A stretch of DNA of 64,000 nt from a virus: IMG/VR virus record IMGVR_UViG_3300037467_000723. One strand, 5' to 3'. The position numbers and the translations under genes were made by a program. Below, piece after piece: positions 3,507 through 62,179 of this stretch. The notes below the pieces were generated by a model that saw only the letters and a program-made list of their open reading frames with translations, was not told the origin of the DNA and ran no database searches. The stretch's first letter is position 1, and each line of letters starts with the position of its first letter.

Positions 3507-3796
3507 TGGGCTGGAAAATTATCAAAGACCACGGTTATGAAAAAAGCGTGAAACGTGCTGAAAAATACGGCACTTCGGTTTATGGCACTAGCTATGAAGG
3601 CAAGGAACGTGACTACCAGGGCGGTAAGATGCAAGTCCGTACTTGGGATGATGACGGCAACCTATATTACACAGCGGTATGTGACGATGAGAACAGCGCA
3701 GAAGCCTTCCACGATTGGAGCCAATATGATTCCGGTTCTGTTCGCTCACAAATTAGAGTCAAAGGCAACGCCAAATGGGAGGAATTTATATCATGA
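3506..3796 (+). CDS. hypothetical protein (96 aa)
   Basis: coupled start ATAATGG; ORF. Confidence 0.5.
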   Translation: MGWKIIKDHGYEKSVKRAEKYGTSVYGTSYEGKERDYQGGKMQVRTWDDDGNLYYTAVCDDENSAEAFHDWSQYDSGSVRSQIRVKGNAKWEEFIS

Positions 3797-3921
3797 GTAA
3801 TTCACCAGCAACTCCTACAGTTGATGAACAGTGGTTACAGCTGATAATCGAAGCGAAACGTCTAGGAATCAGCATCGAAGAAATAAAACAGTTTCTAAAG
3901 GAGGCTAAATCAAATGAATAA
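3793..3921 (+). CDS. SinI-like antirepressor peptide (42 aa)
   Basis: DEQWLQLIIEAKRLGISIEEIKQFL resembles the SinI/SinR dimerisation helix (DQEWVELMVEAKEANISPEEIRKYL in B. subtilis SinI). Confidence 0.4.
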   Translation: MSNSPATPTVDEQWLQLIIEAKRLGISIEEIKQFLKEAKSNE

Positions 3922-4325: not shown

Positions 4326-4718
4326 ATGCAAGTAGGAATGAAGCACAGCGCAATTACAGCAATAAATCGGGGCGACGAGCTCCTGGAGACCAAGAAACGC
4401 TTTGGTCGCGCATTAAAAAAGCTACGAAGCGAACGTAAAGCTCACTCACTAAGAAGCCTTGGTGAGGCGGTTGGCGTCAGCGCTAAGTATTTATCGGAAA
4501 TCGAAAACGGGATCCACCTTCCACAGGATGAACTGATCTATAAAATAGCTCGTGAGTTTCGGATCAGCGAGGTTAAATTGTTCAAGATAGCCAAGCGAGT
4601 TCCACACACTGTTCGACAAGCAATCGAGCGTGACGGGGATCTAAACGAATTAGTCGCTAAGTTGGTAAAAGCTGATGCGTCAACGTTAGAGGCAATCTCT
4701 CAGCTACTGTCGAAATAG
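4326..4718 (+). CDS. XRE-family helix-turn-helix transcriptional regulator (130 aa)
   Basis: LRSLGEAVGVSAKYLSEIENG helix-turn-helix; strong ribosome-binding site aaaggaggaaaaaaccgATG. Confidence 0.7.
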   Translation: MQVGMKHSAITAINRGDELLETKKRFGRALKKLRSERKAHSLRSLGEAVGVSAKYLSEIENGIHLPQDELIYKIAREFRISEVKLFKIAKRVPHTVRQAIERDGDLNELVAKLVKADASTLEAISQLLSK

Positions 4719-6386: not shown

Positions 6387-6742
6387 TCGTTGTCAATTTA
6401 TCTCGAATGGTGGTACAATTTAGACAAAAGAAAAAACGCTGTTTCATCTTGGGGACGAGGACAGCGCTTCTCTAGAGCTTTAAAAATCACAGACAAAGAC
6501 AAAAAAACAAAAACAAAAAAATATCGCACCGAACGAAGCAAAAACAGGTTGGCAGCCGGTTTTAGTTCGTGACCATCAATTGGCAGTTGATAGTCGAGGT
6601 ACAAACAGAGTAAGTCGCAACAAAGGGACTAGTCTGTAGTTATAGTATTCGTTATTTACGTTTATTATAACACGCTTCTACCTCCCCTATCAACCCCACT
6701 CGACTCTTGTTCTGGTGCAATTTACTTAAAGGAGCAAGTCAC

Positions 6743-7681
6743 ATGCAAATCACAGACAAAGACACTTCATTATTAGGCTTATTATTCAACGAAGCACCGT
6801 TACTGATCCGTAAGGAGTTAGCTACCAGGCTCGGTCTTAACGAGGCAATCGTACTTCAACAGGTTCACTTCCATATCCAAGGCAAATATAAAACCGTAAA
6901 AGAAAAAGATCGTGCAGATGATCGTTCATGGATTGAGGGTACGTTCTGGACATATAACAGTTACCCAGAGTGGCAAGAGTCCGACTTCCCTTTCTGGTCA
7001 GCTAGTACAATTGAACGTACTTTCAAGAAACTGGAAAAACAAGGTATTCTACGGTCAGGAAGTTTCAACAAGATGAAAACGGATCGTACTAAGTGGTACA
7101 CAATCAATTACGAAAAGTTATCCACAGTATTAACAGGTGAGGAAACAGCTGAAAACGTTGATGTAGAGCAATCCATCAAAATGATGGGAAGCGCCGTTGA
7201 GCAATCCGTCAAATTGACAGAATGCGTGGTTGAGCAATCCGTCAAAATGACAGATTCCAATCCGTCAGATTGCCGTGAACCAATCCGTCAAATTGACAGC
7301 ATCTTACCTAAGAAGTCCTTAGAGGTCTTTACAAAGAACTTAGAAGAAGAAGATTATAATAAGCGCATGCAAAATTATCGTTTGGTTCGAATTGAATCTA
7401 TGAAACTATCAATTGAATCCGTGACCAACTTCCCTTCTTCTGTTTGTGAAGATGTCGCTACTATTCTATTTGATGAGAAAGAAATAAAGACTGTGTCATT
7501 GAGAGCAGTTAAAAGTGCGTTTGGTAAGTATAAGAAAAACAAAAAGAACGTGGGTAACTTAGTACCATGGTTTATTACTACGTATGTGAATGCAGAAATT
7601 GAAGTTTCAGTGGATGATTCAGAAACTGAGCAACCTGTAGCAACTGGATCAGTCCCCTTCTATAACTGGTTAGAACAATAA
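6743..7681 (+). CDS. replication initiator / replisome organiser with internal origin iterons
   Basis: start MQITDKD with ribosome-binding site aaaggagcaagtcacATG; N-terminal winged-helix-like region; five CAATCCGTCAAAWTGACAG iterons inside the coding sequence (VEQSVK repeats at protein level). Confidence 0.55.
   Translation: MQITDKDTSLLGLLFNEAPLLIRKELATRLGLNEAIVLQQVHFHIQGKYKTVKEKDRADDRSWIEGTFWTYNSYPEWQESDFPFWSASTIERTFKKLEKQGILRSGSFNKMKTDRTKWYTINYEKLSTVLTGEETAENVDVEQSIKMMGSAVEQSVKLTECVVEQSVKMTDSNPSDCREPIRQIDSILPKKSLEVFTKNLEEEDYNKRMQNYRLVRIESMKLSIESVTNFPSSVCEDVATILFDEKEIKTVSLRAVKSAFGKYKKNKKNVGNLVPWFITTYVNAEIEVSVDDSETEQPVATGSVPFYNWLEQ
7163..7299 (+). repeat. iteron array (candidate origin of replication)
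   Basis: about 5 direct repeats of (GTTGAG)CAATCCGTCAAA(A/T)TGACAG with about 23-33 bp period, followed by AT-rich DNA. Confidence 0.6.
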
Positions 7682-7707
7682 AATATGTACTTGTCGACAG
7701 TTTTCCG

Positions 7708-7737
7708 TTGACGTGTTTACTTGTCGTCGAGTATAAT
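7708..7737 (+). promoter_or_regulatory. sigma-A-like promoter with operator in the spacer
   Basis: TTGACG-18-TATAAT; spacer TGTTTACTTGTCGTCGAG; a second half-site at 7684-7699. Confidence 0.55.
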
Positions 7738-7775
7738 GAAGACATTAGCAAATACATATAACGGAGGTTATCGAC

Positions 7776-8576
7776 ATGGAAACTAAAAAGGTTATCGGTT
7801 ATGTACGTGTATCAACGGAGGAACAAAAGAAGCATGGTGGCGGCCTGGAAGTACAGATCGCTGCCATTGAAAACTATTGTGCAGCCATGGGTTGGGAGTT
7901 ACTATACATCGTAAAGGAACCGGCTGAGTCCGGATCATCTATCGAGAAGCGTAAGAAGTTCATGAACATCTTAAACAGCCTTAAGGATCCTAATCGTGGC
8001 TTCGATGGTGTTATCTCTACTAAGCTAGATCGTTTTGCACGTAATCTGAAAGAGTTATTGATTATTCACGATGATATGTTCGAACCGAATAACTGTGCTC
8101 TAATCAGCATCAAAGACCAATTCGATACAAGCACGGCTCAAGGTCGTTTGTTCTTCCAGATCATCGGAGGCTTTGCCGAGTTCGAACGTTCTGTAATCAC
8201 TGAGCGTACTATGGACGGCATCACTCAAAAGGCCGAGCGTGGCCAGCATGCCTCTGGTCGAATCGCATTAGGTTACAAGTCAGTGATGGTTGACGGTAAG
8301 AAAACGTTAGAGGTAGATGATTCCGAAAAAGAAATCGTTGAGTTGATCTTCCGTCTCAAAGACCAGAACCACCTGTCATTCGGTAAGATCGCGGACTATC
8401 TGAACGACAACGGTTATAAGCCAAAGCGCTGGACTCCAGAAAAGCCGGTGCAGTTCCACAATAGTTCCGTCCAAGTCATCTATAAGAATCCAAAGTACAA
8501 AGGCATCTATACGTTTAATCGACGTGGCGAAGACCAAATCGTAGTTGAAAACGAAGCATTACGTATCTTATCCTAG
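7776..8576 (+). CDS. serine recombinase (resolvase/invertase-type N-terminus plus partial recombinase domain, 266 aa)
   Basis: GYVRVSTEEQ catalytic-serine motif; C-terminal VIYKNPKYKGIYTF recombinase-domain-like; no zinc-ribbon/coiled-coil extension. Confidence 0.8.
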   Translation: METKKVIGYVRVSTEEQKKHGGGLEVQIAAIENYCAAMGWELLYIVKEPAESGSSIEKRKKFMNILNSLKDPNRGFDGVISTKLDRFARNLKELLIIHDDMFEPNNCALISIKDQFDTSTAQGRLFFQIIGGFAEFERSVITERTMDGITQKAERGQHASGRIALGYKSVMVDGKKTLEVDDSEKEIVELIFRLKDQNHLSFGKIADYLNDNGYKPKRWTPEKPVQFHNSSVQVIYKNPKYKGIYTFNRRGEDQIVVENEALRILS

Positions 8577-8587
8577 GAGGAGTTTTA

Positions 8588-8953
8588 ATGAAAAAGTATG
8601 AAAATAGTCTGGATGGGTTTAAACAGTACTGTAAGAATAATCCGTTAATGTTTGCTGTTAAGCCTGTGCATTATGTTAAGAATGAAGAACCAACACTTTA
8701 TGGAGATGACTACTATATCGCTTTGTCTATAAACCCTAGAAGTAAAGAAAAATCGAAAAAACCAGTAGGCACTTTAGGCAGAATGGAAGGAAAAGTAGAT
8801 GTTATATTAAGAGTTTACGATAAGAAAAATAATACATTTAAGAAATTTGACGGAATTGAAGCCGGAATCTTTCATGCTTACTTTTCTGAAGAAATACACA
8901 AATTTGCAGTTGTCAATTTTCTCTTTATCGAAGATTTGTTTGAAATCAAATAA
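8588..8953 (+). CDS. hypothetical protein, AT-rich (121 aa)
   Basis: ORF with ribosome-binding site aggaggagttttaATG. Confidence 0.5.
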   Translation: MKKYENSLDGFKQYCKNNPLMFAVKPVHYVKNEEPTLYGDDYYIALSINPRSKEKSKKPVGTLGRMEGKVDVILRVYDKKNNTFKKFDGIEAGIFHAYFSEEIHKFAVVNFLFIEDLFEIK

Positions 8954-8957
8954 CGAT

Positions 8958-8997
8958 GATCCGTGTCCCCTACTCCGGGATGCGGATTTTTTTTTAT
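8958..8997 (+). terminator. rho-independent terminator
   Basis: 11-bp stem atccgtgtccc/gggatgcggat plus T9. Confidence 0.7.
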
Positions 8998-9002
8998 TTC
9001 TG

Positions 9003-9032
9003 CGTTACAAATCCCCAATTGGGCCGGACTGT
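9003..9032 (+). promoter_or_regulatory. phage-specific promoter-like motif, copy 1 (CGTTACAAA-N9-GGGCCGGACTGT)
   Basis: exact bipartite motif 34 nt upstream of the 9066 start, after a terminator. Confidence 0.6.
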
Positions 9033-9065
9033 CTATCAGAAACAAATATGTAAGGAGCGATAGTC

Positions 9066-9761
9066 ATGGTCGAATTAGAACAATCCACTGCAATTGAAGC
9101 AATTAACTCTGTAGGCAAAGAAGCTTGGTTCCTGTACTCAGGCCTCCGGTTTATGGCGATTGATTCCGTAGTGAACATCACACATGCGGAAATGGCCGAG
9201 CTACTGGGAGTGTCGTTGAAATTCGTACAGCGGCACATCAAGACTCTCCAGGACTTCAGAGTTGGTGATGAAACATTAGTCCGTGCAGTTCGCACAGCCG
9301 AAGGTTATTCCTATGAGGTTACTGCGATCAAAGTAAAGCGCGGCACCACTCCTTTATTGAAACCCAAAAAGAAACAAACCAAGGTCTCCCCTACTAACGA
9401 GTTGTTCGATTACTGGTTGCAGAAGTATCACGATGCTTATGGTGCTCCGTACCAAGTCACTAACTTCGGTAAGGAAAAAGGCCATGTCCGTACCCTAGCG
9501 TCACGTTACGGTGCTGACGTCGAGATGATTAAAGCAATCATGGATGTTGTCATTCGCCTATATCCGACCAAATGGAAGACTGCACAGTTCGCACGTCCTA
9601 CCTTGGGTGCGTTAGTGTCGTGGTTGGCAGCTCAAGCAGAACCGATGGCACGAGCTAACCTGGAAGCGGCCAACGATGCAGATGTTGTGATCACGAGTGA
9701 AGACGGCGAGGATGTATTCGCGGCTTACGATAAGCATTGGAACATTGGAGGGATTGAGTAA
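9066..9761 (+). CDS. putative helix-turn-helix replication/DNA-binding protein (231 aa)
   Basis: N-terminal helix-turn-helix AEMAELLGVSLKFVQRHIKTL; position immediately upstream of the helicase-loader/helicase genes. Confidence 0.45.
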   Translation: MVELEQSTAIEAINSVGKEAWFLYSGLRFMAIDSVVNITHAEMAELLGVSLKFVQRHIKTLQDFRVGDETLVRAVRTAEGYSYEVTAIKVKRGTTPLLKPKKKQTKVSPTNELFDYWLQKYHDAYGAPYQVTNFGKEKGHVRTLASRYGADVEMIKAIMDVVIRLYPTKWKTAQFARPTLGALVSWLAAQAEPMARANLEAANDADVVITSEDGEDVFAAYDKHWNIGGIE

Positions 9762-10084
9762 TGAAGGCACCAGTATTAGTACCGAAAAATGTAGCAGAGG
9801 CATTAGAACACATGCTGAAAATACACGATACGAAATCAGCAACATTAAAAGCCATTCAGCAAAATGGTGATATTGGCAAAAATAGCACGTTGATTTACCA
9901 ACACTTCAATCGTGATATGGAACAGGTATTTGATGCACTGGCTTACGGTTATATTGTCGAGATGACTCCTGAGGAAAAGCTCCGTGAGTACTATAGCTCC
10001 CCTAGTACGAAGCTCTACGAACAGGCGGTTATGCGTACCACACTGACCATTATGGGTCTCAAAGTCGAAGGAGTGAATGCGTAA
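9761..10084 (+). CDS. hypothetical protein (107 aa)
   Basis: ORF, ATGA-coupled. Confidence 0.5.
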   Translation: MKAPVLVPKNVAEALEHMLKIHDTKSATLKAIQQNGDIGKNSTLIYQHFNRDMEQVFDALAYGYIVEMTPEEKLREYYSSPSTKLYEQAVMRTTLTIMGLKVEGVNA

Positions 10085-10278
10085 TGAACGAAACTACTAA
10101 ACGTCTAAAGCAAATCAAAGCCAACTGTAAACGTGGTCGCATGTCCTTTGAAGATATGGATTGGTTGATTGGTGAGTTGGAATTGTTAGATGCAATGACC
10201 ACATTACAGAGTCATGTAATTGAAAGTGCCAATAAACGCATCAAGGAGTTGGAGTCTGATGGACGAAAAGATCGCTAA
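10084..10278 (+). CDS. hypothetical coiled-coil protein (64 aa)
   Basis: ORF, coupled. Confidence 0.4.
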   Translation: MNETTKRLKQIKANCKRGRMSFEDMDWLIGELELLDAMTTLQSHVIESANKRIKELESDGRKDR

Positions 10279-10960
10279 GGTCTGCCCAGCACGGCACACT
10301 TGCAAGCAGCATAACATCCTTTGCGGCAGTGGCTGTCCCCTGTTCGTTGAGTTACGGTATCAAACCGAACTCTCCGGGATCCCGAGGCGGCACCGTAAGT
10401 TCACGATAGAGTCCTTACCGGAAGATACAATTCGACTTGCGGCACTAAAGACATATAACGAAAACATCATTCAACGTGTTAAAGCCGGTCAAGGGCTGTA
10501 TCTACACGGCAACACGGGATCCGGTAAGACCACTGCCCTTGCGGCCCTGGCTATGAGCTACATCGTTGAGGCCTCCAAAACAGCGTTACGAACCGGTCAA
10601 CGTTCAGTTCAGATGGTTCTGTTCCTAAACGTCCCTGAGTTACTGGCTGGGTTGAAACGTGGGTTTGACGATCCAGCCGAGCAGATCATTTGGGCGTCAA
10701 AGTTATCCCTAGCACGTAGGGTTCCCCTATTAATTCTCGATGACATCGGTGCAGAAAAGCCGACAGAGTGGGCCCGGGAACGCCTAACAGAGATTATCGG
10801 AGCTAGGTATGATAACGAACGCACTACCCTAATTAGCAGTAATTTAACCTTACCGGAGCTCAAAGAGCACATCGACCCTATAGGGCGCATCACGAGTCGG
10901 ATCAGCGGCATGACGATCCCGATGGAGTACAAAGGTAAGGATCGGAGGAAGCCTATATGA
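10258..10960 (+). CDS. DnaC/IstB-like AAA+ helicase loader
   Basis: Walker A HGNTGSGKTT; Walker B LLILDDIGAEK; N-terminal Cys cluster; start chosen at MDEKIAKV with ribosome-binding site aaggagttggagtctg. Confidence 0.7.
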
Positions 10961-12231
10961 TTGAGTTACTACTATTAAATGCCTTGATTGCCACTCGTGA
11001 TTATCACGCCTTACAACGACATGCTTTGAACTCGCCTTACCATTTCCAGGAGCAACGTGCGGCGTACGATTTCATTATCGACCATCTAGAAAAATACAGT
11101 GAGCTCCCCTCTCTGGAAAGTGTCGTTGCTGCATGCGATGACTTCGAGGCCATGGAAGTTACGGAGTCCATCGATACACTGTGTATGAAGCTGGCAGAGC
11201 GTAACCTAAAGATAGAACAAAAGGACACTTTGAAAAAGTTGGCGGCACTGTTCGGTGAGAAAGATGGTTACGAGATCCAGGACGAATTTAAGAAGCATAT
11301 GGAGCGCCTCGAGAAGAAAGCATCAGCACGAACCAAGAACGGATCCAACTGGGCTGTCAATGGGGATGACCGTGAGGCCGAGTACAAGCGTCGACAGTCG
11401 CAAGATTTCAGTGTCAAGATCCCCTTCTTCTTTGACGAGTTTACGCAAGCAACCGGTGGTGCCGAGCGCGGCGATGTGTGCGCGATCATGGCGTCAACAT
11501 CAATGGGAAAATCGTGGCTAGGTTTGAAACAAGGATTAGTCGCGCATAAGGCTGGCTTTAAGGTGCTCGTTGAGTCCGGTGAGATGTCTAAGCCAGAGAA
11601 CGAATTCCGATTAGATACGCTCGATGCTGGCTTCTCTAATAAAGGGCTATGGACAGGTGAACTTGATGACGAGCACGACTACTTACAGTATCTGAAACAG
11701 TTCAGTAAGGGCAACGGTAAGGCCGACCTAATTATTAAGACGGCACAGGATTGGCCGAAAGGATTAACGCTCGAGCAGATCCAGTACGATGCTGAACAGA
11801 GCAAGGCTGACGTCATTGTCATTGACCAATTCTCGTTACTACGATTCAAGTCGGGATCCAAGGAAGATAAAACCACCTTCTCTCGTCAGCTAAAACAATT
11901 GGCAGCCAAATTAGGCGTAGTGATCGTGCTGCTGTACCAGACAAACGGTGCTTACCTTAAGAAAATTAAAGAAGACGATGAAGGCATTACCGAGCTCGTA
12001 CTGCCGACCTTAGACGACTATTCAGAATCCATCGCAGTGATCCAGGACTCCTCCTTCGTATTCGGTTGGGCCAGTGTCACCTGGAAAGATGAAAAGACAG
12101 GACGACGTCGCGGTAAGGGCATCGCCGGTATCCTTAAGGCGCGGTACGGAGGTGCTGGCACGGAATGTGATGTTGAGTTCTGCCCTAACGATGGCATCAT
12201 AAGGCCACGTCAAGCAACGGATATCTTCTAG
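10957..12231 (+). CDS. DnaB-like replicative helicase (424 aa)
   Basis: RecA-fold Walker A ASTSMGKSWLGL; DnaB-like N-terminal domain; operon context. Confidence 0.7.
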   Translation: MIELLLLNALIATRDYHALQRHALNSPYHFQEQRAAYDFIIDHLEKYSELPSLESVVAACDDFEAMEVTESIDTLCMKLAERNLKIEQKDTLKKLAALFGEKDGYEIQDEFKKHMERLEKKASARTKNGSNWAVNGDDREAEYKRRQSQDFSVKIPFFFDEFTQATGGAERGDVCAIMASTSMGKSWLGLKQGLVAHKAGFKVLVESGEMSKPENEFRLDTLDAGFSNKGLWTGELDDEHDYLQYLKQFSKGNGKADLIIKTAQDWPKGLTLEQIQYDAEQSKADVIVIDQFSLLRFKSGSKEDKTTFSRQLKQLAAKLGVVIVLLYQTNGAYLKKIKEDDEGITELVLPTLDDYSESIAVIQDSSFVFGWASVTWKDEKTGRRRGKGIAGILKARYGGAGTECDVEFCPNDGIIRPRQATDIF

Positions 12232-12271
12232 ACGGCCTTGACACAAAAGACGACGCACAGGGAGTGATTAA

Positions 12272-12571
12272 ATGCAGAATTGGCACGTTCTCAAAAAGGA
12301 TGAATACGGCAATAAGTACGATATAAGGATTCTCTTTAGAGACAACAAATTATTGATTGACGATGTAGGTTATATTCCAAAAGGTAAAAGAAAACCACAG
12401 TTTTTAGGCGCGAAATTAACTGATGATTATGGTTGGAGAGTGTTAGCGTGGGAAGGTAGGCGAGAAGCGGTAAAGAAAGAAATATTGAAAGTAGTACCTA
12501 AACACCTGCTTTTAGAAGCGCTGACCGAAACATGGACACAGTTACAACCAACTGAAATCGAATTTAACTAG
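12272..12571 (+). CDS. hypothetical protein (99 aa)
   Basis: ORF with ribosome-binding site. Confidence 0.5.
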   Translation: MQNWHVLKKDEYGNKYDIRILFRDNKLLIDDVGYIPKGKRKPQFLGAKLTDDYGWRVLAWEGRREAVKKEILKVVPKHLLLEALTETWTQLQPTEIEFN

Positions 12572-12606
12572 TGTCGTCTTACGACTAAATTATGCAGGAG
12601 GATTCT

Positions 12607-12762
12607 ATGGAACAGTTAGTGTTTATCGTAATTATCGGAGTTATTCTTATGGTCGTTGGTATATTTGTACTTGGGTTTTTGGTAGCGAAATTCGGAATTA
12701 TGGTGCTCGTATTCGCACTGGCCTTCATCGGCTTAGTGGTGGTACTAGCGACTCTACTATAA
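12607..12762 (+). CDS. small membrane protein (51 aa)
   Basis: ribosome-binding site gcaggaggattctATG; almost entirely hydrophobic (two transmembrane helices). Confidence 0.35.
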   Translation: MEQLVFIVIIGVILMVVGIFVLGFLVAKFGIMVLVFALAFIGLVVVLATLL

Positions 12763-12829
12763 GAGTTAAACGAGGCGATCCGATAAGGGTCGTCTTTGAC
12801 CCAAAGTGTGTCGGAAAGGAGGAAGTAAA

Positions 12830-13018
12830 TTGAGATTCAGATTAGGTGACATTGTTCGGTTTAAGCCTGAAAAAGAAATATTAGGACTACACGAAGTTAC
12901 AGGAATTGGTGAAGGTAGTGAAGTCACACTAACCTTTGATGAATGTAATTCCGAATTTTATGCGGATGAAAATGATTTAATATTAGTTTGTCCTGAGTAC
13001 GAAAGAAGAGATGTCTAG
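12830..13018 (+). CDS. hypothetical protein (62 aa, TTG start)
   Basis: ribosome-binding site aaggaggaagtaaaTTG. Confidence 0.4.
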   Translation: MRFRLGDIVRFKPEKEILGLHEVTGIGEGSEVTLTFDECNSEFYADENDLILVCPEYERRDV

Positions 13019-13040
13019 TTCACACTACGATGATAAGGCG

Positions 13041-13068
13041 TCCCTTCGTCAAGGGTCGTCTTTTTTCG
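13041..13068 (+). terminator. rho-independent terminator
   Basis: cccttcgtcaaggg hairpin plus T6. Confidence 0.5.
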
Positions 13069-13074
13069 TGTCTC

Positions 13075-13205
13075 CCCTCCCCTATTCGATATCGAAAAAT
13101 GTTTAAAAAATGTTTAGAGAATGTATGGACATTCATTTGGGCGTTATGCTATATTGGTAACACAGGAAACATTTTCTATACAGTGTTTAAACATTCATTT
13201 GATAA
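13075..13205 (+). repeat. parC-like centromere candidate (repeated ATGTTTAAA / ACATTCATTTG motifs flanking the parM promoter)
   Basis: aaaatgtttaaaaaatgtttaga ... acattcatttg ... aaacattttc ... gtgtttaaacattcatttg; extended -10 TGcTATATT at 13157-13165. Confidence 0.45.
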
Positions 13206-13220
13206 TTGGAGGAGAAACTA

Positions 13221-14252
13221 ATGACAAACGTAAGCAAAAGAGCAGCTGTAACAGTGGGTAAGGAGAAGAAAGCAACATCATTATACGCAATCGACCTGGG
13301 GAACGGCTTCACTAAAAGGGTATTCGATGGCAGTGACGTCATCGTCGAGCCAAGCGTATTTTCCGAGGTTCCACGAATCAACAATTCAGATCGTAACTAT
13401 TTTACTCTTGATAATAAGCTTCAATATTTTGTCGGGCAAGATGTATTCGACCTAAATTTAGATCCGGAAGTTGCAGTCAACGACAGGGAACGGTACTTCA
13501 CGGATGAGTACAAACAGATGCTGCTGGGATTCATCGCAAAGGACTTTGGTACATTCGATATAATCGAGATTCCGGTTCTAGTGCTGGGCGTACCGAACAC
13601 AGATCACGAAGCAATCGGACCACAGCTTGAGGATTTCTATAGAGGAAAGTCCATCATCAAGATCGATGGGCATCACCAGTTAACTATCGATATCAAGCTT
13701 TGCATCGTACTTCCACAGCCACTCGGGACTTATGCTTATGCCGTTGCTAACGGAATCGTTGAAGAGTGGGGAGACAACGTACTAGTGTGTGATGCTGGTA
13801 CGGGATCCTTCGATGTGGCGTCAATCACAGGTGACCTAATCAAACGTGACGAAGGTTTAACTCTCGGAGCCCTGGATGCGTATATGGAAATTCGTAAGTA
13901 TCTGATTAGACAGCACGGCAATTTATCGGCAATCACTGTAGAGAACATGCCTAACATCTTAGCTAACGGTGTTCGAAAAGACGGTGCTGCCACGGTTATT
14001 AACGATGATCCGAGGGTTATCGAAATCCTAGACAAGAACTTCAATGAGATGTACAAATTCGTCAAGCAAGCTAAGTTCGATTTCGACGCCCATACTACTG
14101 TACTATGGACGGGAGGAACATCTCTATTGCACCAGGAACGCATCGAGGCTAAGAAGAAGAATACATTCGTTGTCCTGGCTGAAGCACAAACGGCCAACGT
14201 TCTAGGCTTCTATGCTATCGCCAAGGATATTGCTGAAGAGGAGAATTTATGA
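13221..14252 (+). CDS. actin-like ATPase of the ParM/Alp family (344 aa)
   Basis: phosphate-1 motif AIDLGNGFTKRV; DAGTGSFD (phosphate-2/adenosine-like); ribosome-binding site ggaggagaaactaATG. Confidence 0.65.
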   Translation: MTNVSKRAAVTVGKEKKATSLYAIDLGNGFTKRVFDGSDVIVEPSVFSEVPRINNSDRNYFTLDNKLQYFVGQDVFDLNLDPEVAVNDRERYFTDEYKQMLLGFIAKDFGTFDIIEIPVLVLGVPNTDHEAIGPQLEDFYRGKSIIKIDGHHQLTIDIKLCIVLPQPLGTYAYAVANGIVEEWGDNVLVCDAGTGSFDVASITGDLIKRDEGLTLGALDAYMEIRKYLIRQHGNLSAITVENMPNILANGVRKDGAATVINDDPRVIEILDKNFNEMYKFVKQAKFDFDAHTTVLWTGGTSLLHQERIEAKKKNTFVVLAEAQTANVLGFYAIAKDIAEEENL

Positions 14253-14596
14253 TGGAGCAAAAGAAGTTTCAGATGTACGTGAATCCGGAAACGGATCCCA
14301 AGCTATACAGCTTCATCGAGTCTATCGAGAAGGGTGCTCCGTCCAAGAAGGGTTATGTAGTTGACCAGATCAAAGAGATCTTACGTGCTTGGTCAGGACT
14401 AGTCGATATCTACGGAGAGAGGGACGTCCTTACCCTCGCTCTCCACCTTGCGGCCGGCAACCCACCAAAACCACCGGAAACGGTACCACTGGTAGTGGGG
14501 GAGAGGGAAGATGTTAAGTCCGAAAGAGGGACGTCTTTGCCGAAAGGAATCGGAGGAAAGTTTGCACAGAATCGGTTTAATCGTGATATAAAATAA
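14249..14596 (+). CDS. putative ParR-like adaptor (115 aa)
   Basis: small ATGA-coupled gene downstream of the ParM-like gene; no sequence-level proof. Confidence 0.35.
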   Translation: MMEQKKFQMYVNPETDPKLYSFIESIEKGAPSKKGYVVDQIKEILRAWSGLVDIYGERDVLTLALHLAAGNPPKPPETVPLVVGEREDVKSERGTSLPKGIGGKFAQNRFNRDIK

Positions 14597-14634
14597 AAAA
14601 GCGACTCCATTGTGGGGTCGCCTTTCTTTTTATC
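14596..14634. terminator. bidirectional terminator
   Basis: aaaaaa-gcgac-tccattgtgggg-tcgc-ctttcttttt between convergent genes. Confidence 0.6.
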
Positions 14635-15145
14635 TGTGATATACTCCATAACCACCGTGGCCATCTGGCAGTATGACATTTGAGTCCAACAATATATTAA
14701 ATACCAGGATACCGACTACAAGAAGCAAGATAATCGAACCTGTAATTCGGATTCGTCGACTGTCGATGAACTTAAGTCTTTTTATCGGTAAAAACTTTAT
14801 TAGCATTGCGTATATCCACATCACAAACCCTGTAATAAACGACAATCTACCGGCTTCATACTGTGGTACGGTAACAAATAGTTTAGTGCGTTCATTCTTC
14901 TTAAGTTTGGTTACATGAATCTCCTCTGCGTCTGGATCCGGTACCATGCGTGTATCCTTTAGTACATAAACCATGATCGCCATACCGATAATAATACCTA
15001 GAAGAACGGCCGAGACGTCAGTAGCTGTGTTCTTGATGATAACTGCCGTGTGATAATCGAAATTTCTCAGCAACCAGTTTAATACATCAACAATTGGCCC
15101 ATCATTGTTTACTTTATAATGACCTTCAAAATGCTTGGGGTTCAT
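14630..15145 (-). CDS. multi-pass membrane protein (171 aa); candidate superinfection-exclusion/RexB-like function
   Basis: 3-4 predicted transmembrane helices; co-oriented downstream of the CI-like repressor. Confidence 0.5.
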   Translation of the reverse strand: MNPKHFEGHYKVNNDGPIVDVLNWLLRNFDYHTAVIIKNTATDVSAVLLGIIIGMAIMVYVLKDTRMVPDPDAEEIHVTKLKKNERTKLFVTVPQYEAGRLSFITGFVMWIYAMLIKFLPIKRLKFIDSRRIRITGSIILLLVVGILVFNILLDSNVILPDGHGGYGVYHR

Positions 15146-15168
15146 ATGTCAACTCCTAAGATGGAAGA

Positions 15169-15606
15169 TTAGTCTGGAAAGTTTTTGTATAGCTTGTACA
15201 TCTGGTCAAATAGCTTTTGTTTCTTTTCATCTGTAAGCTTTTTATCACGTTTGATTTCTACTAATAGATCCTGGAGACTATTTGCTTCATCAAGTTGCTC
15301 TCGCGCCAACAAGGGAACCCGACCAAGCAGTTCAAACAAGCAGGTTTCGTCTATTTCATAGTAATCCGATATCTGACGTATGAAATGGTCACTCATTGAT
15401 TTTACACCCTGTTCGATATTTGACAAGTAGGCAGCAGAAACTCCCAATTTTTTACCTAAGTCAGCTAATGATAAGTCGTTGTCCGTCCTAAGTTGCTTCA
15501 AATAGGCCCCGGCTCTTAACTGCCCCATTAGCTTCTCTTGTTGGTTGTGCATGTCAGCGTCAATTTTTTCTATATCAATACTTTTTTTCCCCTGTGACAG
15601 TTTCAC
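15169..15606 (-). CDS. CI-like XRE-family repressor (145 aa)
   Basis: helix-turn-helix LSLADLGKKLGVSAAYLSNIEQG; divergent from the replication genes; palindromic operators in the upstream intergenic region. Confidence 0.65.
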   Translation of the reverse strand: MKLSQGKKSIDIEKIDADMHNQQEKLMGQLRAGAYLKQLRTDNDLSLADLGKKLGVSAAYLSNIEQGVKSMSDHFIRQISDYYEIDETCLFELLGRVPLLAREQLDEANSLQDLLVEIKRDKKLTDEKKQKLFDQMYKLYKNFPD

Positions 15607-15640: not shown

Positions 15641-15800
15641 TTATAACATTATTATAACATAACTTCTTAACCTTGTGGTTAATGGCAAAAATTGCATCTA
15701 ATATTACTCGCGGTTGTTATTGCTATGTAACATTTGTAATTATATAATAATATAGTTCCAACACGTTAACCACTTGGTTAACATGGTTACGTTAGCGGAT
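15641..15800. promoter_or_regulatory. divergent promoter/operator region
   Basis: direct repeat ttattataaca x2; palindromes TTAACCttgtGGTTAA (15667-15682) and GTTAACCacttGGTTAAC (15765-15782); AT-rich with TTGCAT/TATAAT-like hexamers. Confidence 0.5.
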
Positions 15801-15873: not shown

Positions 15874-15903
15874 CGTTACAAACCTCGAAATGGGCCGGAC
15901 TGT
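15874..15903 (+). promoter_or_regulatory. phage-specific promoter-like motif, copy 2
   Basis: CGTTACAAA-cctcgaaat-GGGCCGGACTGT, 23 nt upstream of the primase GTG. Confidence 0.6.
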
Positions 15904-15925: not shown

Positions 15926-16894
15926 GTGATCATACGTTCTATCCGTATCGAATTAGACATACATGATTATCTCGAATCGAAAGGCCTACATAAAGTCCGG
16001 CCGGTTGGTGATAACGTAATGGCTTGCTGCCCGTTTCATGACGAACGAGCGCCAAGCTTCGGTGTAAACAGCGAGACCGGGGTTTACAATTGCTTCGGCT
16101 GCGGTGCTCGTGGGACTATCGGCCATCTGGTGAAAGTACTAGACCGATTCGACACGGTATTCGACGCAGAAACATTTTTGATTCATACCTATGGTCGTTA
16201 TGCTGTTGATCTAGACGATGAATTAACATTAGAATTTGGGGACGAGGCGAGACGTCAGGACTATTTCATCAGCACGGACGTCCTTGATGCTTACAAGTTT
16301 AGACATCCGTACTTAGATGGACGGGGTATTGAAGAATCGTGGCAGCGTTTCTTTGGTATTGGCTACTCGAAACAGCATCGAGCAATTACGATTCCTTGGT
16401 ATGACGAGGATAGTAGATTAATAACTGTAAAGTTTCGTAGTGTACTAGATAAGAAGTTTTGGTACGATCCACCATTGCCTCCTGGTCTAAAGGCAGAAAC
16501 GTTATGGGGCTTCAACAAGATACTGCGGCACGGCTTCACTAAGGTGGCACTTACTGAGGCTGAGATTGATGGCATATCCGTTTGGCAAGGCGGTGCTCCA
16601 CGAAAGATCGGAGCAGCTGGCATAGGAGGCAATCAATTTAACCGAGCACAAGCAGATAAGTTAATACGTAATTTACCGACCTACTCAGAAATCATCACCT
16701 TCACGGATAACGATAAGGGTGGGGAACACGCAAAGGAACTAATATCCGATTACTTATCGGGGAGATTTCGTCTGTCAGAAGTCGATTGGTCGTTAATTGA
16801 TCGAGAGGTCAAGGACGCTAACGATCTTACTAAAGAAGAAATCGGTTTGTTGCTGGACAATAGAAAGCCGATGGGCGTTAAATTATTCTTCTAA
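15926..16894 (+). CDS. DnaG-type DNA primase (zinc-finger plus TOPRIM, 322 aa)
   Basis: CHC2 zinc finger CCPFHDERAPSF...CFGCGARG; TOPRIM-like EAEIDGISVWQGG...DNDKGG. Confidence 0.7.
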   Translation: MIIRSIRIELDIHDYLESKGLHKVRPVGDNVMACCPFHDERAPSFGVNSETGVYNCFGCGARGTIGHLVKVLDRFDTVFDAETFLIHTYGRYAVDLDDELTLEFGDEARRQDYFISTDVLDAYKFRHPYLDGRGIEESWQRFFGIGYSKQHRAITIPWYDEDSRLITVKFRSVLDKKFWYDPPLPPGLKAETLWGFNKILRHGFTKVALTEAEIDGISVWQGGAPRKIGAAGIGGNQFNRAQADKLIRNLPTYSEIITFTDNDKGGEHAKELISDYLSGRFRLSEVDWSLIDREVKDANDLTKEEIGLLLDNRKPMGVKLFF

Positions 16895-16921: not shown

Positions 16922-17587
16922 ATGACAAAACCATACACTGAAATGACAGACGAACGTTTAGTAACACTTGCACAGCAAGGGGATGATGATGCGTTCTCAA
17001 CCATCTTCCTACGCTACCAAAAAGGATTACAGGTTCAAGCTGAAAGGGCAGCAATACGGTTCCCATCGTTTTACGAGGATGAGTTCTTCGGATACTTCCA
17101 GGAACGATTCATTCAGATAGTACAGAAATTTGACGTCAACAGTGGCGTGTACTTCGCTAAGTACTGCAGCTTTAAATTCCCGAAACTAGCGCATGACTAC
17201 GTACGTAGACGGTTATTCCCAAGGAACCCGGATGGTACGCAAAGGGAATCAGCTAGGGATCGTCATAAGGTAATTCCAAGCGACTTAAGGCAGACTAAAA
17301 TGCCGGACAATCGCTATACGTTTGATTACCAGCAACCTATTGAGGATACGGAATTGTACGAGTATCTCTGCTCGATCAGTGATATCAACGCAAAGGTTAT
17401 TGCTCTGCTGGTACAAGGTTACACTCATCATGAGATTGCTCTGAAGATGGGAAGAACCGGCAATGCTGCGGCTTTACGAAATTGGACAGGCCGTGTTGTT
17501 CGAAAAATGAAGGAAGACACACTTGCGTTCTATAGTGAGAGCGACAGCCTCGGTGAGGTCAGTACTTACGCAAGAATGCTAGGGTAA
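16922..17587 (+). CDS. phage-encoded sigma-70-family (ECF-like) sigma factor (221 aa)
   Basis: region 2-like LVTLAQQGDDDAFSTIFLRYQKGL; region 4 helix-turn-helix HHEIALKMGRTGNAAALRNWTGRVVRKM. Confidence 0.6.
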   Translation: MTKPYTEMTDERLVTLAQQGDDDAFSTIFLRYQKGLQVQAERAAIRFPSFYEDEFFGYFQERFIQIVQKFDVNSGVYFAKYCSFKFPKLAHDYVRRRLFPRNPDGTQRESARDRHKVIPSDLRQTKMPDNRYTFDYQQPIEDTELYEYLCSISDINAKVIALLVQGYTHHEIALKMGRTGNAAALRNWTGRVVRKMKEDTLAFYSESDSLGEVSTYARMLG

Positions 17588-17745: not shown

Positions 17746-18351
17746 ATGAAGAAGCTAGTAGCGCCGATGTTAGCAGCTGGACTGTTAATGGCGGCATCTC
17801 CGGCATTTGCGTACAACGTGAGTCCTGGGGATACACTTAGCCAAATCGCTGTAAATGAACATATCACGTTAATCGACCTAATTAAATTAAATCCACAAAT
17901 TAAAGATCCGAACATGATCTTTCCAGGCGATGTGATAAAGACAACAGAAACACCGGATGTAGCGAATCCAACAACTACGGTGAATACTACCTATTCTGCC
18001 CGTGATCTTGACGTAATGTCTCGGATCATCGAGGCAGAGGCTGGGGGTGAGCCGTACAAAGGGAAAGTAGCAGTCGCAGAAGTGATTATGAATCGTGTTG
18101 CTTCACCGAAATTCCCGGACTCAGTCGAGGCAGTCGTTTATGCGCCTCACCAGTTCTCTCCGGTAGCAAACGGCATGATTAATAAGCCAGCTTCCGACGA
18201 TTCAATCCGTGCTGCCAAAGAAGTACTAAGCACATACCATGGTGATTCAAACGGAGCCATCTATTTCTTCAACCCAGGAGCAACATCCGACCACTGGATC
18301 CGTACTCGACAAGTTGTAGAAAGAATCGGAAATCATATTTTTTCAAAATAA
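17746..18351 (+). CDS. secreted LysM-domain cell-wall hydrolase (SleB/CwlJ Hydrolase_2-like, 201 aa)
   Basis: signal peptide MKKLVAPMLAAGLLMAASPAFA; LysM YNVSPGDTLSQIA...IFPGDVIK; C-terminal SRIIEAEAGGEPYKGKVAVAEVIMNRV. Confidence 0.6.
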   Translation: MKKLVAPMLAAGLLMAASPAFAYNVSPGDTLSQIAVNEHITLIDLIKLNPQIKDPNMIFPGDVIKTTETPDVANPTTTVNTTYSARDLDVMSRIIEAEAGGEPYKGKVAVAEVIMNRVASPKFPDSVEAVVYAPHQFSPVANGMINKPASDDSIRAAKEVLSTYHGDSNGAIYFFNPGATSDHWIRTRQVVERIGNHIFSK

Positions 18352-35690: not shown

Positions 35691-36560
35691 ATGAGAACAG
35701 ATAACCAAGGTAAAAAAGGCGTAGGAATTATCGGAGCAGTAGTAGTAGGAATCGGATTAATCGGTGGGGCAATCTTTTCATGGGGTGGTTCGTCTCACAT
35801 TCCGGTAGGTTCCGTAGGTATCGTAAAGCACATGAACGGTCAGGTAACTGAAATATCACAAGGCTGGCACTGGACAGGTTGGACTACCGGTGTTCAAGAA
35901 TATCCGACGTATAAGCAATCTCTAGTGCTTAGCGACAAATCTAGCGAAGGCGGCGAAGGAAATTCGTCTTGGAAAGTTGGCACGATGGATCAACAGGAGC
36001 TACCGGTTAACACGTCTCTAACATGGTCTATCTCAACTAAGGATGCTAAAGCGTTGTATCAAGCAGTTGGCGGTAAGGACATCGATTATATCCGTGACTC
36101 TATCGTTTCTCCAACAATGAAAAATATCGTTAACCAAATAACACATCAATACGGCTGGAACGAAATTAAAGGTTCTAAGCAAGCGGAAGTAGCGCTTAAG
36201 ATCAATGCAGCGTTAAAGGCCGAGCTATTGAAGTCAGGTATCGATGTAGGAACATTCGGATTCACACACGTTGGCTCTCCAGGAGGAATGGCTGCTGCTC
36301 AATCTGCACTAGCGACTGCTGAATTAGGAAAGCAAAAAGCTTTAGCTACGCAACAAACAGCTAAGATTACGAATGAGACAATGATTTCAAACGCAAAGGC
36401 GAAAGCAGAAGCTAAGAAAATCGAATCTCAAGCGACTAAGGCGCAAGCTGCAGCATTAAACGAATTGGTCATCCAAGAGAAGATGATCGAAAAGTGGAAC
36501 GGTCAGTTACCTCAAGTATCCGGTTCTAATACGATCATGCAACTTCCAGGACTGAAGTAA
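35691..36560 (+). CDS. membrane-anchored SPFH/band-7-like protein (289 aa)
   Basis: N-terminal transmembrane helix GVGIIGAVVVGIGLIGGAIF, then an SPFH-like beta-rich region and an Ala/Lys/Gln coiled-coil tail. Confidence 0.45.
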   Translation: MRTDNQGKKGVGIIGAVVVGIGLIGGAIFSWGGSSHIPVGSVGIVKHMNGQVTEISQGWHWTGWTTGVQEYPTYKQSLVLSDKSSEGGEGNSSWKVGTMDQQELPVNTSLTWSISTKDAKALYQAVGGKDIDYIRDSIVSPTMKNIVNQITHQYGWNEIKGSKQAEVALKINAALKAELLKSGIDVGTFGFTHVGSPGGMAAAQSALATAELGKQKALATQQTAKITNETMISNAKAKAEAKKIESQATKAQAAALNELVIQEKMIEKWNGQLPQVSGSNTIMQLPGLK

Positions 36561-55942: not shown

Positions 55943-56947
55943 TTACGCACGTTGAATAACACCGATAGTATGAGCGTTACCAGCAAGCTTAGCTACAGGA
56001 GCACCGAAGTGGACACCAACGTAAGATTCGTTAAGGTTAGAAGTCTTACCAAGTTGGAACACACGAACGTCTTTAGAGCCAACGTAGTGGAATTCAACAA
56101 GGTCTTCAGTAACGATAGCGAATGGATAGTTGTGTAATCCAGCACCAGCAGCAGCGATACCAGGGATAGTCTGATCCATTGTTAAGAATGGTTCTGGGAT
56201 AATTGGAAGTAAGCCAGCAGCAGTTTGGATACCCATTACGCTTAGACCAGCTTTAACTTCAGCCATGTCAGTACCGATGTAACGGATTGCGTTGTTGCTG
56301 TTCTTCACCTCTTGCTCAAGGTAATCAAGCGCGATTGGGTTCATGTAGATCGCAGTTGGACGGATAGCGAACAACGGATCGTTAACCATGTTAGCAACTT
56401 GAGTACGGATGCCATCAAGGATAGAAGCAGAAGATCCGATTGTTTGAGTCTTAGTGATTTGGTTTACTAAACCTACGAACTGAATGCCACCATTACCAAC
56501 TTGGTTACCGGAAACAGTATCAGTACCAGCCCATAAACCTTTGTCACGTAAGCGAAGTACACCATTAACCATGTCCTTCAAATCTTTCGCCTTTAATTGA
56601 GCGAATACGTTTCCTTGCTGACCAACTGTTTCTAGGTCGAATAAGCTGTAGTTGATTTGGTTAGTGATCGCCTTAACAACTAGAGACTTTTCAACACGAG
56701 TTGGTGATGTTGCTGTTGGAGCGATAGTACGAGGGTCAGTGTATTGACCATCAGCAATCGCAGTTTGATCGAACCAGCGAGAGATAGAACCGGTAGCTGG
56801 GACATACTCAATACGTTGTCCTAAAACACCAGCACGACGAACAAGGTCGTTGATTTCGCTTTGGAATTCTGGAACGATGATAGCACCGTTGCCCATATAG
56901 TCAGCAGCGGCATTTAAGTTAGTGAATTGTGCAATTTGATTTGCCAT
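55943..56947 (-). CDS. major capsid protein (334 aa)
   Basis: position after the scaffold gene; size; strong ribosome-binding site; flanking terminator. Confidence 0.7.
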   Translation of the reverse strand: MANQIAQFTNLNAAADYMGNGAIIVPEFQSEINDLVRRAGVLGQRIEYVPATGSISRWFDQTAIADGQYTDPRTIAPTATSPTRVEKSLVVKAITNQINYSLFDLETVGQQGNVFAQLKAKDLKDMVNGVLRLRDKGLWAGTDTVSGNQVGNGGIQFVGLVNQITKTQTIGSSASILDGIRTQVANMVNDPLFAIRPTAIYMNPIALDYLEQEVKNSNNAIRYIGTDMAEVKAGLSVMGIQTAAGLLPIIPEPFLTMDQTIPGIAAAGAGLHNYPFAIVTEDLVEFHYVGSKDVRVFQLGKTSNLNESYVGVHFGAPVAKLAGNAHTIGVIQRA

Positions 56948-56985
56948 TAATTAATTTCCTCCTGTGTGTACATAATGTGTACTAA

Positions 56986-58107: not shown

Positions 58108-58126
58108 ATACTCACCCCCTTTCGAG

Positions 58127-59557: not shown

Positions 59558-59600
59558 CGGCTAACCTCCTTTCTACTAAAGTGTGTGTACATTATGTGTA

Positions 59601-61657: not shown

Positions 61658-61719
61658 GGTTGTTGTCTCCTTTCTAGTAATAAGTTCTGAGAATTCTCGG
61701 AATCCGGCTCAGATTAAGT

Positions 61720-61760
61720 AGAAATAAAAAATACCGTGGCGCTCGGAAGCAATCCACGGC
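61720..61760 (-). terminator. rho-independent terminator between the tRNA cluster and terS
   Basis: minus-strand ccgtgg-attgcttccgagcg-ccacgg plus tattttttattt. Confidence 0.55.
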
Positions 61761-61787
61761 TGATCGTTTTCTATAGGGGAGGGAGCT

Positions 61788-61862
61788 GACGGCTGGAATC
61801 GAACCAGCAACGGAATCCACCATATTGGATGCGTTTTACCATTAAACTACGTACAGCATGTA
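61788..61862 (-). tRNA. tRNA-like gene A
   Basis: reverse-complement T-arm GCTGG-TTCGATT-CCAGC and D-arm GTTT-AATGGTA-AAAC; acceptor has a bulge and the anticodon loop looks like 6 nt by hand. Confidence 0.4.
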
Positions 61863-62160: not shown

Positions 62161-62179
62161 CGGAGAATGTGGAAATAAC

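Follow-up and report, generated by a model that had tools for sequence, protein, structure and literature searches.

Plasmid-type maintenance genes of an uncultured phage suggest lysogeny as a low-copy circular plasmid

Phage-plasmids with an actin-type partition system (ParMRC) are already established in Bacillota. The phage IEBH has been proven by experiment to be a circular plasmid prophage; it has no integrase and is listed as packaging its DNA by the headful mechanism (PMC8026635). Like other plasmid prophages of the Bacillus cereus group (vB_BtS_B83, phiS58/Waukesha92 and phage 250), it is of siphovirus type and encodes a small adaptor behind its ParM-like ATPase. A comparable pair, AlpC/AlpA with the site alpS, is found in the integrated Corynebacterium prophage CGP3, where an adaptor of the actin-like protein binds its own promoter region (PMC4446434). 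Here, we have analysed a window of 64,000 nt (the whole stretch of viral DNA given by IMG/VR record IMGVR_UViG_3300037467_000723), and in particular the block at positions 6,743-15,606, in which an earlier note, made from the letters alone, had listed a cluster of plasmid-type functions. All of the listed elements were found where it had placed them. They belong to a new and uncultured phage family, which was defined as the window phage and five relatives from other metagenomes (L014, L016, L074, L075 and L076). We assign a probability of about 0.65 to the reading that this phage lysogenises as a low-copy circular plasmid, that is, as a phage-plasmid. Such an episomal lysogeny, proposed in the earlier note, is strengthened by the homology of the ParM-adaptor pair to that of IEBH, the conservation of the block within the family and the record of a distantly related plasmid, pYPD9-1, although several details of the proposal did not stand.

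The link to IEBH lies in a partition cassette with the following features.

13042-13055, terminator-like site preceding the parMR promoter
13095-13205, parC-like region with 11-bp direct repeats, a dyad and an inverted arm around the promoter
13126-13155, plus strand, predicted parMR promoter TGGACA-18-TATATT with TG, between the repeats
13221-14252, plus strand, actin-like ParM/Alp ATPase
14249-14596, plus strand, ParR-like adaptor candidate of 115 aa, overlapping the parM stop
14601-14621, terminator hairpin between parR and a convergent membrane-protein gene

The identity of the ATPase as ParM is secure from its sequence, as had been supposed: it matched ALP_N (1e-11), the PHROGs family phrog_691 ('partition protein', 7e-53) and the NCBIfam ParM model PRK13917 (4e-22; 79 bits, which is below the 417-bit equivalog cut-off). 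The phosphate-1 (D25-G29), phosphate-2 (D191-G195) and adenosine (T297-G299) motifs are invariant, with DLGNG, DxGxG and GG unchanged in 15 homologues, and the protein thus has the intact nucleotide-binding motifs of a type II (ParMRC) actin-fold ATPase. Among cultured phages, homologues of 33-36% identity were found in Rossellomorea phiT1 and in 15 records of Bacillus phages, of which 14 are siphoviruses of the B. cereus group (45-56 kb); a weaker match was found in the 150 kb Bacillus myovirus H16. Identities to the ParMs of Bacillales phage-plasmids were 34-38%, the phiT1 group being closest among cultured phages (36-38%). Homologues in PLSDB were mostly on Bacillales plasmids of 34-120 kb, and solved ParM structures were only weakly similar, the best being those of Clostridium botulinum (E 1e-5).

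The gene downstream of parM, previously offered as an adaptor candidate, encodes a conserved N-terminal domain of ~70 aa, a Pro-rich linker and a basic C-terminal tail, and is homologous to IEBH gp75 (34% identity, E 2e-14), which is encoded after the IEBH ParM (itself 34% identical to that of the window) and is listed in the literature as a ribbon-helix-helix (RHH) protein. Upstream of parM, the presence of centromere-like repeats was also borne out. An 11-bp unit, AAAAATGTTTA, occurs 2.7 times at 13095-13124, a 27-nt inverted arm lies downstream of the -10 at 13169-13195 (inverted repeat of 85%), and a GAAT-N8-ATTC dyad overlies the -35 of the parMR promoter. Judged by this architecture, with repeats upstream of the gene and overlapping its promoter, the region would be a type II centromere. 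The dyad and the TGnTATATT promoter were kept in five of the six family members; the repeats vary where ParM and the adaptor vary, and L074, whose ParM is 40% identical, has unrelated repeats upstream of parM. The cassette resembles the type II ParMRC systems of R1 and pSK41 in its repeat array over the promoter, actin-fold ATPase and small adaptor with an N-domain and a C-terminal tail, whereas its array is short (about three direct 11-mers plus dyads) and the adaptor and its binding are predicted.

In other respects the window phage differs from the IEBH group. Nucleotide similarity is absent, the backbone is another one and the genome is larger (66.5 versus 45-56 kb). Genes for PolA, DnaB, primase, RNR and ThyX are part of it, as is one for a sigma-like factor that has a promoter motif to itself. 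Its recombinase is a short serine enzyme, whereas many phages of the B. cereus group possess Xer-like tyrosine enzymes or no recombinase. Recombinases of this short kind, consisting of a catalytic N-terminal domain and a recombinase domain (NTD+RD), are paired with parM and an adaptor in phiT1 (271 aa), in the circular 53.5 kb Halobacillus litoralis phage-plasmid NZ_CP129017.1 (277 aa) and in LC810155.1. Two of these three have been deposited as plasmids of ~52-53 kb. Their recombinase genes lie directly upstream of parMR, whereas that of the window is 4.6 kb away and adjoins the initiator gene; the recombinases are only 32-35% identical to that of the window and the phage backbones differ.

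A distant relative by its backbone is pYPD9-1 of a Paenibacillus hexagrammi isolate (NZ_CP090979.1), a circular plasmid record of 70,482 bp from a complete genome, similar in size to the window phage. It shares 29 of 73 open reading frames (ORFs) with this phage, in the same order and spanning the structural and replication arms, including TerL (41% identity), portal (45%), major capsid protein (38%), DnaC/DnaB/primase (31-37%), PolA (54%), ThyX (58%) and an XRE regulator (36%), as well as TerS and tail genes. A 359-aa ORF of pYPD9-1, followed by a 114-aa ORF, had no Pfam match and aligned over its full length with the ParM profile in hhalign (70%, E 4e-5); it is a probable, very divergent actin-like gene. 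This gene, together with a 275-aa tyrosine recombinase and a Doc toxin also carried by pYPD9-1, would represent functionally analogous maintenance parts on a related backbone.

Within the family, the contigs of the five relatives are ~59-68 kb and have kept the gene order initiator, recombinase, helix-turn-helix (HTH) protein, DnaC-like protein, DnaB, ParM, adaptor, opposite-strand membrane protein and repressor, and primase. Identities to the window were 76-92% for DnaB, 40-86% for ParM, 35-74% for the adaptor, 48-76% for the recombinase and 63-74% for the repressor. The modules of the block are mosaic, as shown by the low end of the ParM range and by swapped initiators.

The complete genome of the window phage is ~66.5 kb. 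Two metagenomic contigs (L007 and L008) link window positions 56671-63971 to position 1 across 2,555 nt, and therefore join the terminase arm to the early arm in a circular map; contigs with the two arms joined came from several samples. The added 2,555 nt code only for a 62-aa ORF, a GP88-family protein and a 117-aa ORF. In the window, whose GC content is 41-48%, the early/middle arm (~1-37,500) points rightward; beyond it lies a leftward arm for structure and lysis, with portal, capsid, tail tube protein, a 1246-aa tape-measure-like ORF, an amidase and the terminase genes.

59601-61657, minus strand, TerS/TerL

TerL (59601-61244, minus strand) is closest to terminases of Mu-like/D3112-like transposable phages (36-38% identity, ~37%), a kinship that suggests headful packaging; in spite of this terminase, the phage has a full, non-transpositional replisome. 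Genes for terminase, portal, capsid, tail, lysis and replication make the phage gene set complete, and parMR, an iteron initiator and a recombinase lie on the same replicon, as would be expected of a phage-plasmid. Proteins identical to those of the window were present on contigs of several Joint Genome Institute (JGI) and Logan metagenomes, and a metagenomic contig of 66,841 bp has an identical copy of the adaptor. No bacterial flank or phage-chromosome junction was seen in any of ~30 contigs inspected. Megablast against phage and plasmid collections gave no nucleotide relatives of the block. A scan of viral contigs with ParM alone had no matches; with the ParM alignment, it returned only relatives of no more than 38% identity, mostly of ~41-56 kb and resembling B. 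cereus-group elements. Two exact-pattern scans of metagenome contigs for the source contig ends or a terminal overlap found nothing.

Replication of a plasmid form may start within the initiator gene, for which the following features were recorded.

6390-6419, plus strand, sigma-A-like promoter TTGTCA-18-TACAAT with TG, the predicted start of the initiator mRNA leader, kept in six of six family members
6419-6477, minus strand, hairpin (~6437-6466) and U-run, the predicted intrinsic terminator of a leftward antisense RNA
6664-6693, minus strand, convergent promoter TTGATA-18-TATAAT with TG (11/12), ~50 nt upstream of the initiator ATG, both hexamers kept in six phages
6743-7681, plus strand, replication initiator with an N-terminal DNA-binding domain of phage O/DnaD-like type
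7169-7295, five iterons CAATCCGTCAAATTG inside the initiator gene, with spacings of 33, 33, 23 and 23

The initiator matched phrog_6493 (9e-34), phrog_11233 (1e-24) and 'replication initiation O-like' families, and its residues 6-131 were 43-49% identical to initiators of staphylococcal and Geobacillus phages. With up to three mismatches, CAATCCGTCAAATTG occurs nine times in the window against 2.15 expected, and a stretch of 31-36% GC follows directly after the iterons. The array within the gene is accordingly placed by sequence as a candidate origin. Iterons and an AT-rich stretch inside the initiator gene form the arrangement of lambda O/ori, and lambda oop is a leftward RNA beside the O-type gene of an integrative phage. 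The window resembles lambda O/ori-lambda (lambda-dv plasmids) in combining a phage initiator N-terminal DNA-binding domain with intragenic iterons and an AT-rich stretch, and resembles the oop arrangement in its predicted leftward RNA promoter just upstream of the initiator gene. It differs in that homology to lambda O is limited to generic phage-initiator families, the loader and helicase are DnaC/DnaI-like plus phage DnaB in contrast to lambda P, and the predicted antisense RNA, unlike oop, overlaps the initiator's own leader. An initiator of this type is common also in integrative phages, such as the staphylococcal and Geobacillus phages it resembles, and is therefore no plasmid marker; the gene and iterons claimed in the earlier note were present, whereas their reading as a plasmid-specific function was not sustained.

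The relatives have other iterons at the same place in the gene and unrelated initiators. These versions have been swapped within the family, whereas the non-coding upstream leader, kept in all six phages though their initiators differ, and the flanking genes stay constant, and the exchange looks like a cassette-like replacement of origins. The convergent promoter and terminator predict an RNA of ~230 nt antisense to the initiator leader. Among the 11 pairs of the terminator hairpin, two showed compensatory changes and none was broken across the six phages, and its predicted folding energy was -13 to -19 kcal/mol. By analogy, this RNA is a candidate copy-control countertranscript that could set copy number; because lambda oop is found in an integrative phage, it is suggestive, and not diagnostic, of a plasmid. 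We also observed an exact 18-nt direct repeat, AAATCACAGACAAAGACA, at 6484-6501 in the leader and at 6747-6764 (initiator codons 2-7). L014 has an analogous duplication of the start region of its own initiator. Exchange of initiator modules could have left the repeat as a scar, or it may be a target of regulation.

The adjoining recombinase cassette bears on both plasmid maintenance and integration. Its features are as follows.

7708-7737, plus strand, sigma-A-type recombinase promoter TTGACG-18-TATAAT (11/12), in a region with motifs at 7689-7737
7776-8576, plus strand, short serine recombinase of 266 aa with catalytic NTD and RD
8588-8953, plus strand, 121-aa accessory ORF, predicted to be co-transcribed with the recombinase
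8958-8988, predicted strong terminator after the 121-aa ORF

The recombinase matched Resolvase PF00239 (2e-36) and Recombinase PF07508 (7e-13), and ends at position 88 of the 102 of the latter profile. Its best profile was the phage integrase family phrog_95 (2e-71), followed by the 'DNA invertase' family phrog_125 (2e-41). Annotated large serine integrases share ~32-33% identity with it in their N-terminal halves; it aligns with the NTD of TP901-1 Int (E 3e-21) and has intact catalytic motifs. Like the integrases of phiC31, Bxb1, A118/LI and TP901-1, it contains the NTD and RD; unlike those of phiC31, Bxb1, A118 and TP901-1, it stops after the RD and lacks the zinc ribbon with its embedded coiled-coil. 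No zinc-ribbon (PF13408) was found in the protein or in its 37 closest homologues, and the ORF downstream had no match. In serine integrases, the recombinase and zinc-ribbon domains jointly contact an att half-site, and the coiled-coil is responsible for synapsis of attP with attB and for directionality (PMC3783163); an integrase role is therefore unlikely for an enzyme without these parts. The 'small serine recombinase' of the earlier note is thus a serine recombinase of the large serine recombinase type, with NTD and RD, and not a classical small resolvase or invertase (Tn3, gamma-delta, Sin, Hin), since its C-terminal part is the larger recombinase domain and not an HTH of ~40 aa.

A truncated integrase pseudogene was considered and ruled out. 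The 37 best homologues, of ~195-335 aa, hold the short length and the same two domains down to ~33% identity, the first zinc-ribbon protein ranking 38th, and the gene is therefore not a decayed one. Short NTD+RD recombinases form a family of conserved length, 250-290 aa, and this holds down to 30% identity. A reading as an archaeal or chromosomal integrase was also dropped, as the homologue in question (P0043) lies in an unrelated archaeal context and is uninformative. Besides the recombinases beside parMR mentioned above, NTD+RD proteins of 266 aa are encoded by small plasmid records of Priestia megaterium, one of them linear and of 5.4 kb, the others plasmids of 13-27 kb. These contexts favour, by inference, a role in plasmid maintenance such as multimer resolution, and the window enzyme is a candidate multimer resolvase. 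In line with the earlier note, Pfam and PHROGs searches of the remaining large ORFs, and of the 2.5 kb that complete the genome beyond the window, gave no tyrosine or large serine integrase, nor any other recombinase or transposase; as far as sequence can tell, integration machinery beyond the 266-aa enzyme appears to be absent.

Two ACTTGTCGWC sites lie at the recombinase promoter, one upstream and one in the spacer, and two TGTCGNC sites are conserved in this region. As a wider observation, ACTTGTCGWC occurs five times in the window against 0.34 expected (4734, 5606 on the minus strand, 5700, 7689 and 7719 on the plus strand). It lies mostly in the spacers of sigma-A-like early promoters, and the recombinase promoter shares it with those at ~4722 and ~5690. 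Because the same motif marks other early promoters, the TGTCGNC/ACTTGTCGWC sites may be an operator rather than a res or crossover site; candidate binders are the recombinase itself and early regulators, for instance the HTH protein at 4326-4718. At the place of the 121-aa ORF, three relatives have other small ORFs and two have none.

The lytic replication genes lie on both sides of the parMR cassette and are preceded by a motif of their own.

9020-9032 and 15891-15903, plus strand, 13-nt promoter-like motif TGGGCCGGACTGT, the first site preceding the HTH/DnaC/DnaB operon and the second the primase and sigma-like genes
9066-12231, plus strand, replication operon with HTH protein (9066-9761), two small ORFs, DnaC/DnaI-like loader (10259-10960) and DnaB-like helicase (10957-12231)
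15926-16894, plus strand, primase, behind the motif at 15891
16922-17587, plus strand, sigma-70-like protein with weak SigE/SigH-type matches

The phage also encodes PolA, RNR and ThyX. The motif matched nine times against 0.69 expected, eight of the matches being intergenic, and precedes eight operons (replication, nucleotide metabolism and tail). Sites were recorded at 9020, 15891, 17685, 18371, 23833, 29160 and 33697 on the plus strand and at 47877 on the minus strand. Together with the sigma-70-like protein, TGGGCCGGACTGT suggests a phage-sigma-dependent middle/late promoter class. The phage-specific promoter motif that had been placed before the replication genes was therefore recovered, as was the lytic gene set behind it; the idea of two separate replicons was not borne out. 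The recombinase and parMR cassettes have sigma-A-type promoters and terminators of their own and lie between TGGGCCGGACTGT-preceded operons, so their expression independent of the lytic cascade is allowed, though not proven.

A prophage state also calls for a repressor, and candidates were found on the opposite strand.

14630-15145, minus strand, membrane protein with ~3 transmembrane segments, following the repressor gene on its strand
15169-15606, minus strand, XRE-family (SinR/SlrR-like) repressor candidate (HTH_31/HTH_3, 1e-11)
15667-15781, two 16-bp palindromes TTAACC-N4-GGTTAA (starts 15667 and 15766), candidate operators between repressor and primase genes

In the repressor, an XRE HTH (residues 33-91) was the sole domain detected, and the SlrR-like match was weak. 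Hence, of the divergent CI-like repressor that had been proposed, an XRE-type candidate was retained; an S24 peptidase or autocleavage domain, as in the CI/LexA type, was not detected in 15169-15606. No canonical leftward promoter for the repressor could be placed by consensus. TTAACC-N4-GGTTAA had three matches in the window against 0.26 expected. The pair recurs in L016 and in none of the other relatives, a pattern that would be expected of diversifying immunity specificities. A third palindrome with one mismatch, TTAACCAGTTGGTTGA, was observed at 63605-63620, in the long non-coding junction of the terminase and early arms, and may serve the leftmost early promoter as an operator. The membrane protein had been called RexB-like from its position; it showed no significant match in Pfam, PHROGs, NCBIfam or PADLOC and has no RexA-like partner, and this label was abandoned. 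Its position is kept in all relatives (32-64% identity), and it is a candidate prophage-expressed exclusion or defence protein. In addition, a 42-aa ORF at 3793-3921 (plus strand) matched the anti-repressor SinI family PF08671 (5e-10), with SinI-like ORFs also in L016 and L074; judged by these matches, it could form a SinI/SinR-style antirepressor-repressor switch with the repressor.

A mechanism can be proposed from these parts. Its steps are inferred, whereas gene identities, repeats, motif statistics, conservation, the homology of the IEBH pair and the flank-free circular map are direct observations. In the prophage, the XRE-type repressor would act on the TTAACC-N4-GGTTAA operators and silence the lytic programme, which would rely on the phage sigma-like factor and TGGGCCGGACTGT promoters, and genes with host-type promoters would stay available. 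The O/DnaD-like initiator would then act on its five intragenic iterons and drive theta replication with host or basal phage replisome parts, and the conserved convergent antisense RNA may throttle initiator expression. Sister copies would be segregated by the insulated parMR: the adaptor would bind the repeats and dyad that overlie its own promoter, and the copies would be pushed apart by ParM filaments. Multimers would be resolved by the 266-aa serine recombinase, which lacks the zinc ribbon and coiled-coil needed for attP x attB integration. Upon induction, the phage-promoter-driven DnaC/DnaB/primase/PolA/RNR set would take over, followed by headful packaging.

Several points weigh against lysogeny as a plasmid. 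A circular map without flanks fits a plasmid and, equally, circularly permuted headful-packaged virion DNA, from which metagenomic circular-mapping contigs look the same. A close relative was absent from the isolate genomes scanned, scans with TerL alone and then with the ParM alignment having given no confirmed relative. The RHH fold of the adaptor was unconfirmed, as Foldseek and a PDB sequence search gave no match and the AlphaFold2 monomer (pLDDT 64) has three helices, and pYPD9-1 has no BLAST-level homologue of the window ParM, adaptor, recombinase or initiator. The recombinase promoter is of the same class as other early promoters, and resolution is a candidate role for the enzyme. Moreover, the large autonomous replication and nucleotide set (PolA, DnaB, primase, RNR and ThyX) is typical of virulent phages too, and an actin-like protein and adaptor serve lytic replication in the integrated prophage CGP3 (PMC4446434). 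ParM, the adaptor and the repeats might likewise position or transport replicating phage DNA during the lytic cycle, as AlpC, AlpA and alpS do, in a phage that is virulent or temperate in some other way. AlpAC is needed for efficient CGP3 phage replication (PMC4446434), and the presence of a full replisome, RNR, ThyX and a sigma-like factor in the window phage and of a ParM-family protein in the myovirus H16 would fit such a use. We nevertheless consider it improbable: the nearest characterised kin of ParM and the adaptor are in plasmid prophages (IEBH) and Bacillales plasmids and not AlpC, to which the window system is likened by layout alone, parMR is served by a host-type promoter and insulated by terminators from the TGGGCCGGACTGT-driven operons, and it co-occurs with the repressor module and recombinase in every relative.

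Integration would require the 266-aa recombinase to act as a minimal integrase, or together with a host or partner factor, with ParMR used transiently or on the excised circle. The match to phrog_95, the likeness to the N-terminal halves of large serine integrases and the intact catalytic motifs would be explained in this way; the missing zinc ribbon and coiled-coil, the presence of the same short architecture next to parMR in circular phage-plasmids and in records of small Priestia plasmids, and the lack of a phage-chromosome junction in the contigs inspected make it less probable still than a lytic role for ParM. The recombinase cassette and parMR might also be 'moron' cargo gained horizontally from plasmids and play no part in maintaining the phage itself, and the insulation of both cassettes, the variable small ORF adjoining the recombinase and the mosaic nature of the region are features to be expected of such cargo. 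This appears very unlikely, since all six members, though diverged, have both genes in the same places, with conserved active-site motifs and co-varying upstream repeats, which argues for selection on a phage function. Lysogeny as a low-copy plasmid therefore remains our preferred reading.

Some further observations concern other parts of the genome. The contig ends of L014, L075 and L076 (59-67 kb) share one non-coding region between the terminase and early arms, and L074 ends elsewhere; the shared ends could be true termini, terminal repeats or a repeat-rich region that breaks assembly. Several independent metagenomic contigs stop at the same points of the window, at ~4061, at 12307 (just after DnaB) and at 12832-13001 (~13000 being just before parM), and relatives have other small ORFs or a DNA methylase between DnaB and parM. 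The coinciding ends suggest strain-level variable cassettes between these genes. Adjoining the small terminase gene, within 61789-62253 (minus strand), ARAGORN found tRNA-Ile(TAT) and tRNA-Ala(TGC); a third tRNA-like match at 61789-61852 came from Rfam, in which a tRNA was the sole match. A LysM and Hydrolase_2 (SleB-like cell-wall hydrolase) gene at 17746-18351 (plus strand), in the middle region, is kept in relatives and hints at a spore-forming host, and an SPFH/Band-7 protein is encoded at 35691-36560 (plus strand), at the end of the rightward arm; both are unusual as accessory functions. The phage is most likely siphovirus-like and temperate, with a Bacillales-type (Bacillota) host.

As to novelty, the modestly new leads are the class of NTD+RD recombinases travelling with ParMRC and the conserved antisense leader. 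Our boldest interpretation is tentative and, in our view, somewhat doubtful: the family would be an undescribed one of Bacillota phage-plasmids of ~66-68 kb with two-tier replication, in which an antisense-controlled iteron initiator with a host-type promoter, ParMRC and the NTD+RD recombinase would provide maintenance and a private, phage-sigma-dependent replisome would provide lytic growth; NTD+RD enzymes would then form a distinct class, dedicated to resolving multimers and accompanying ParMRC in several phage-plasmid lineages that are unrelated to one another. Phage-plasmids are common vehicles of gene flow, and Bacillota examples outside the B. cereus group and Clostridium are few. If confirmed, the family would add a lineage that joins a virulent-style private replisome to plasmid maintenance functions. 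Three parts would become available for testing, namely a class of short serine recombinases, a candidate iteron replicon under antisense control and a compact parMRC cassette. They could serve vectors for Paenibacillus- or Bacillus-like hosts, and the recombinase could help to show how the catalytic and recombinase domains work without a zinc ribbon and coiled-coil.

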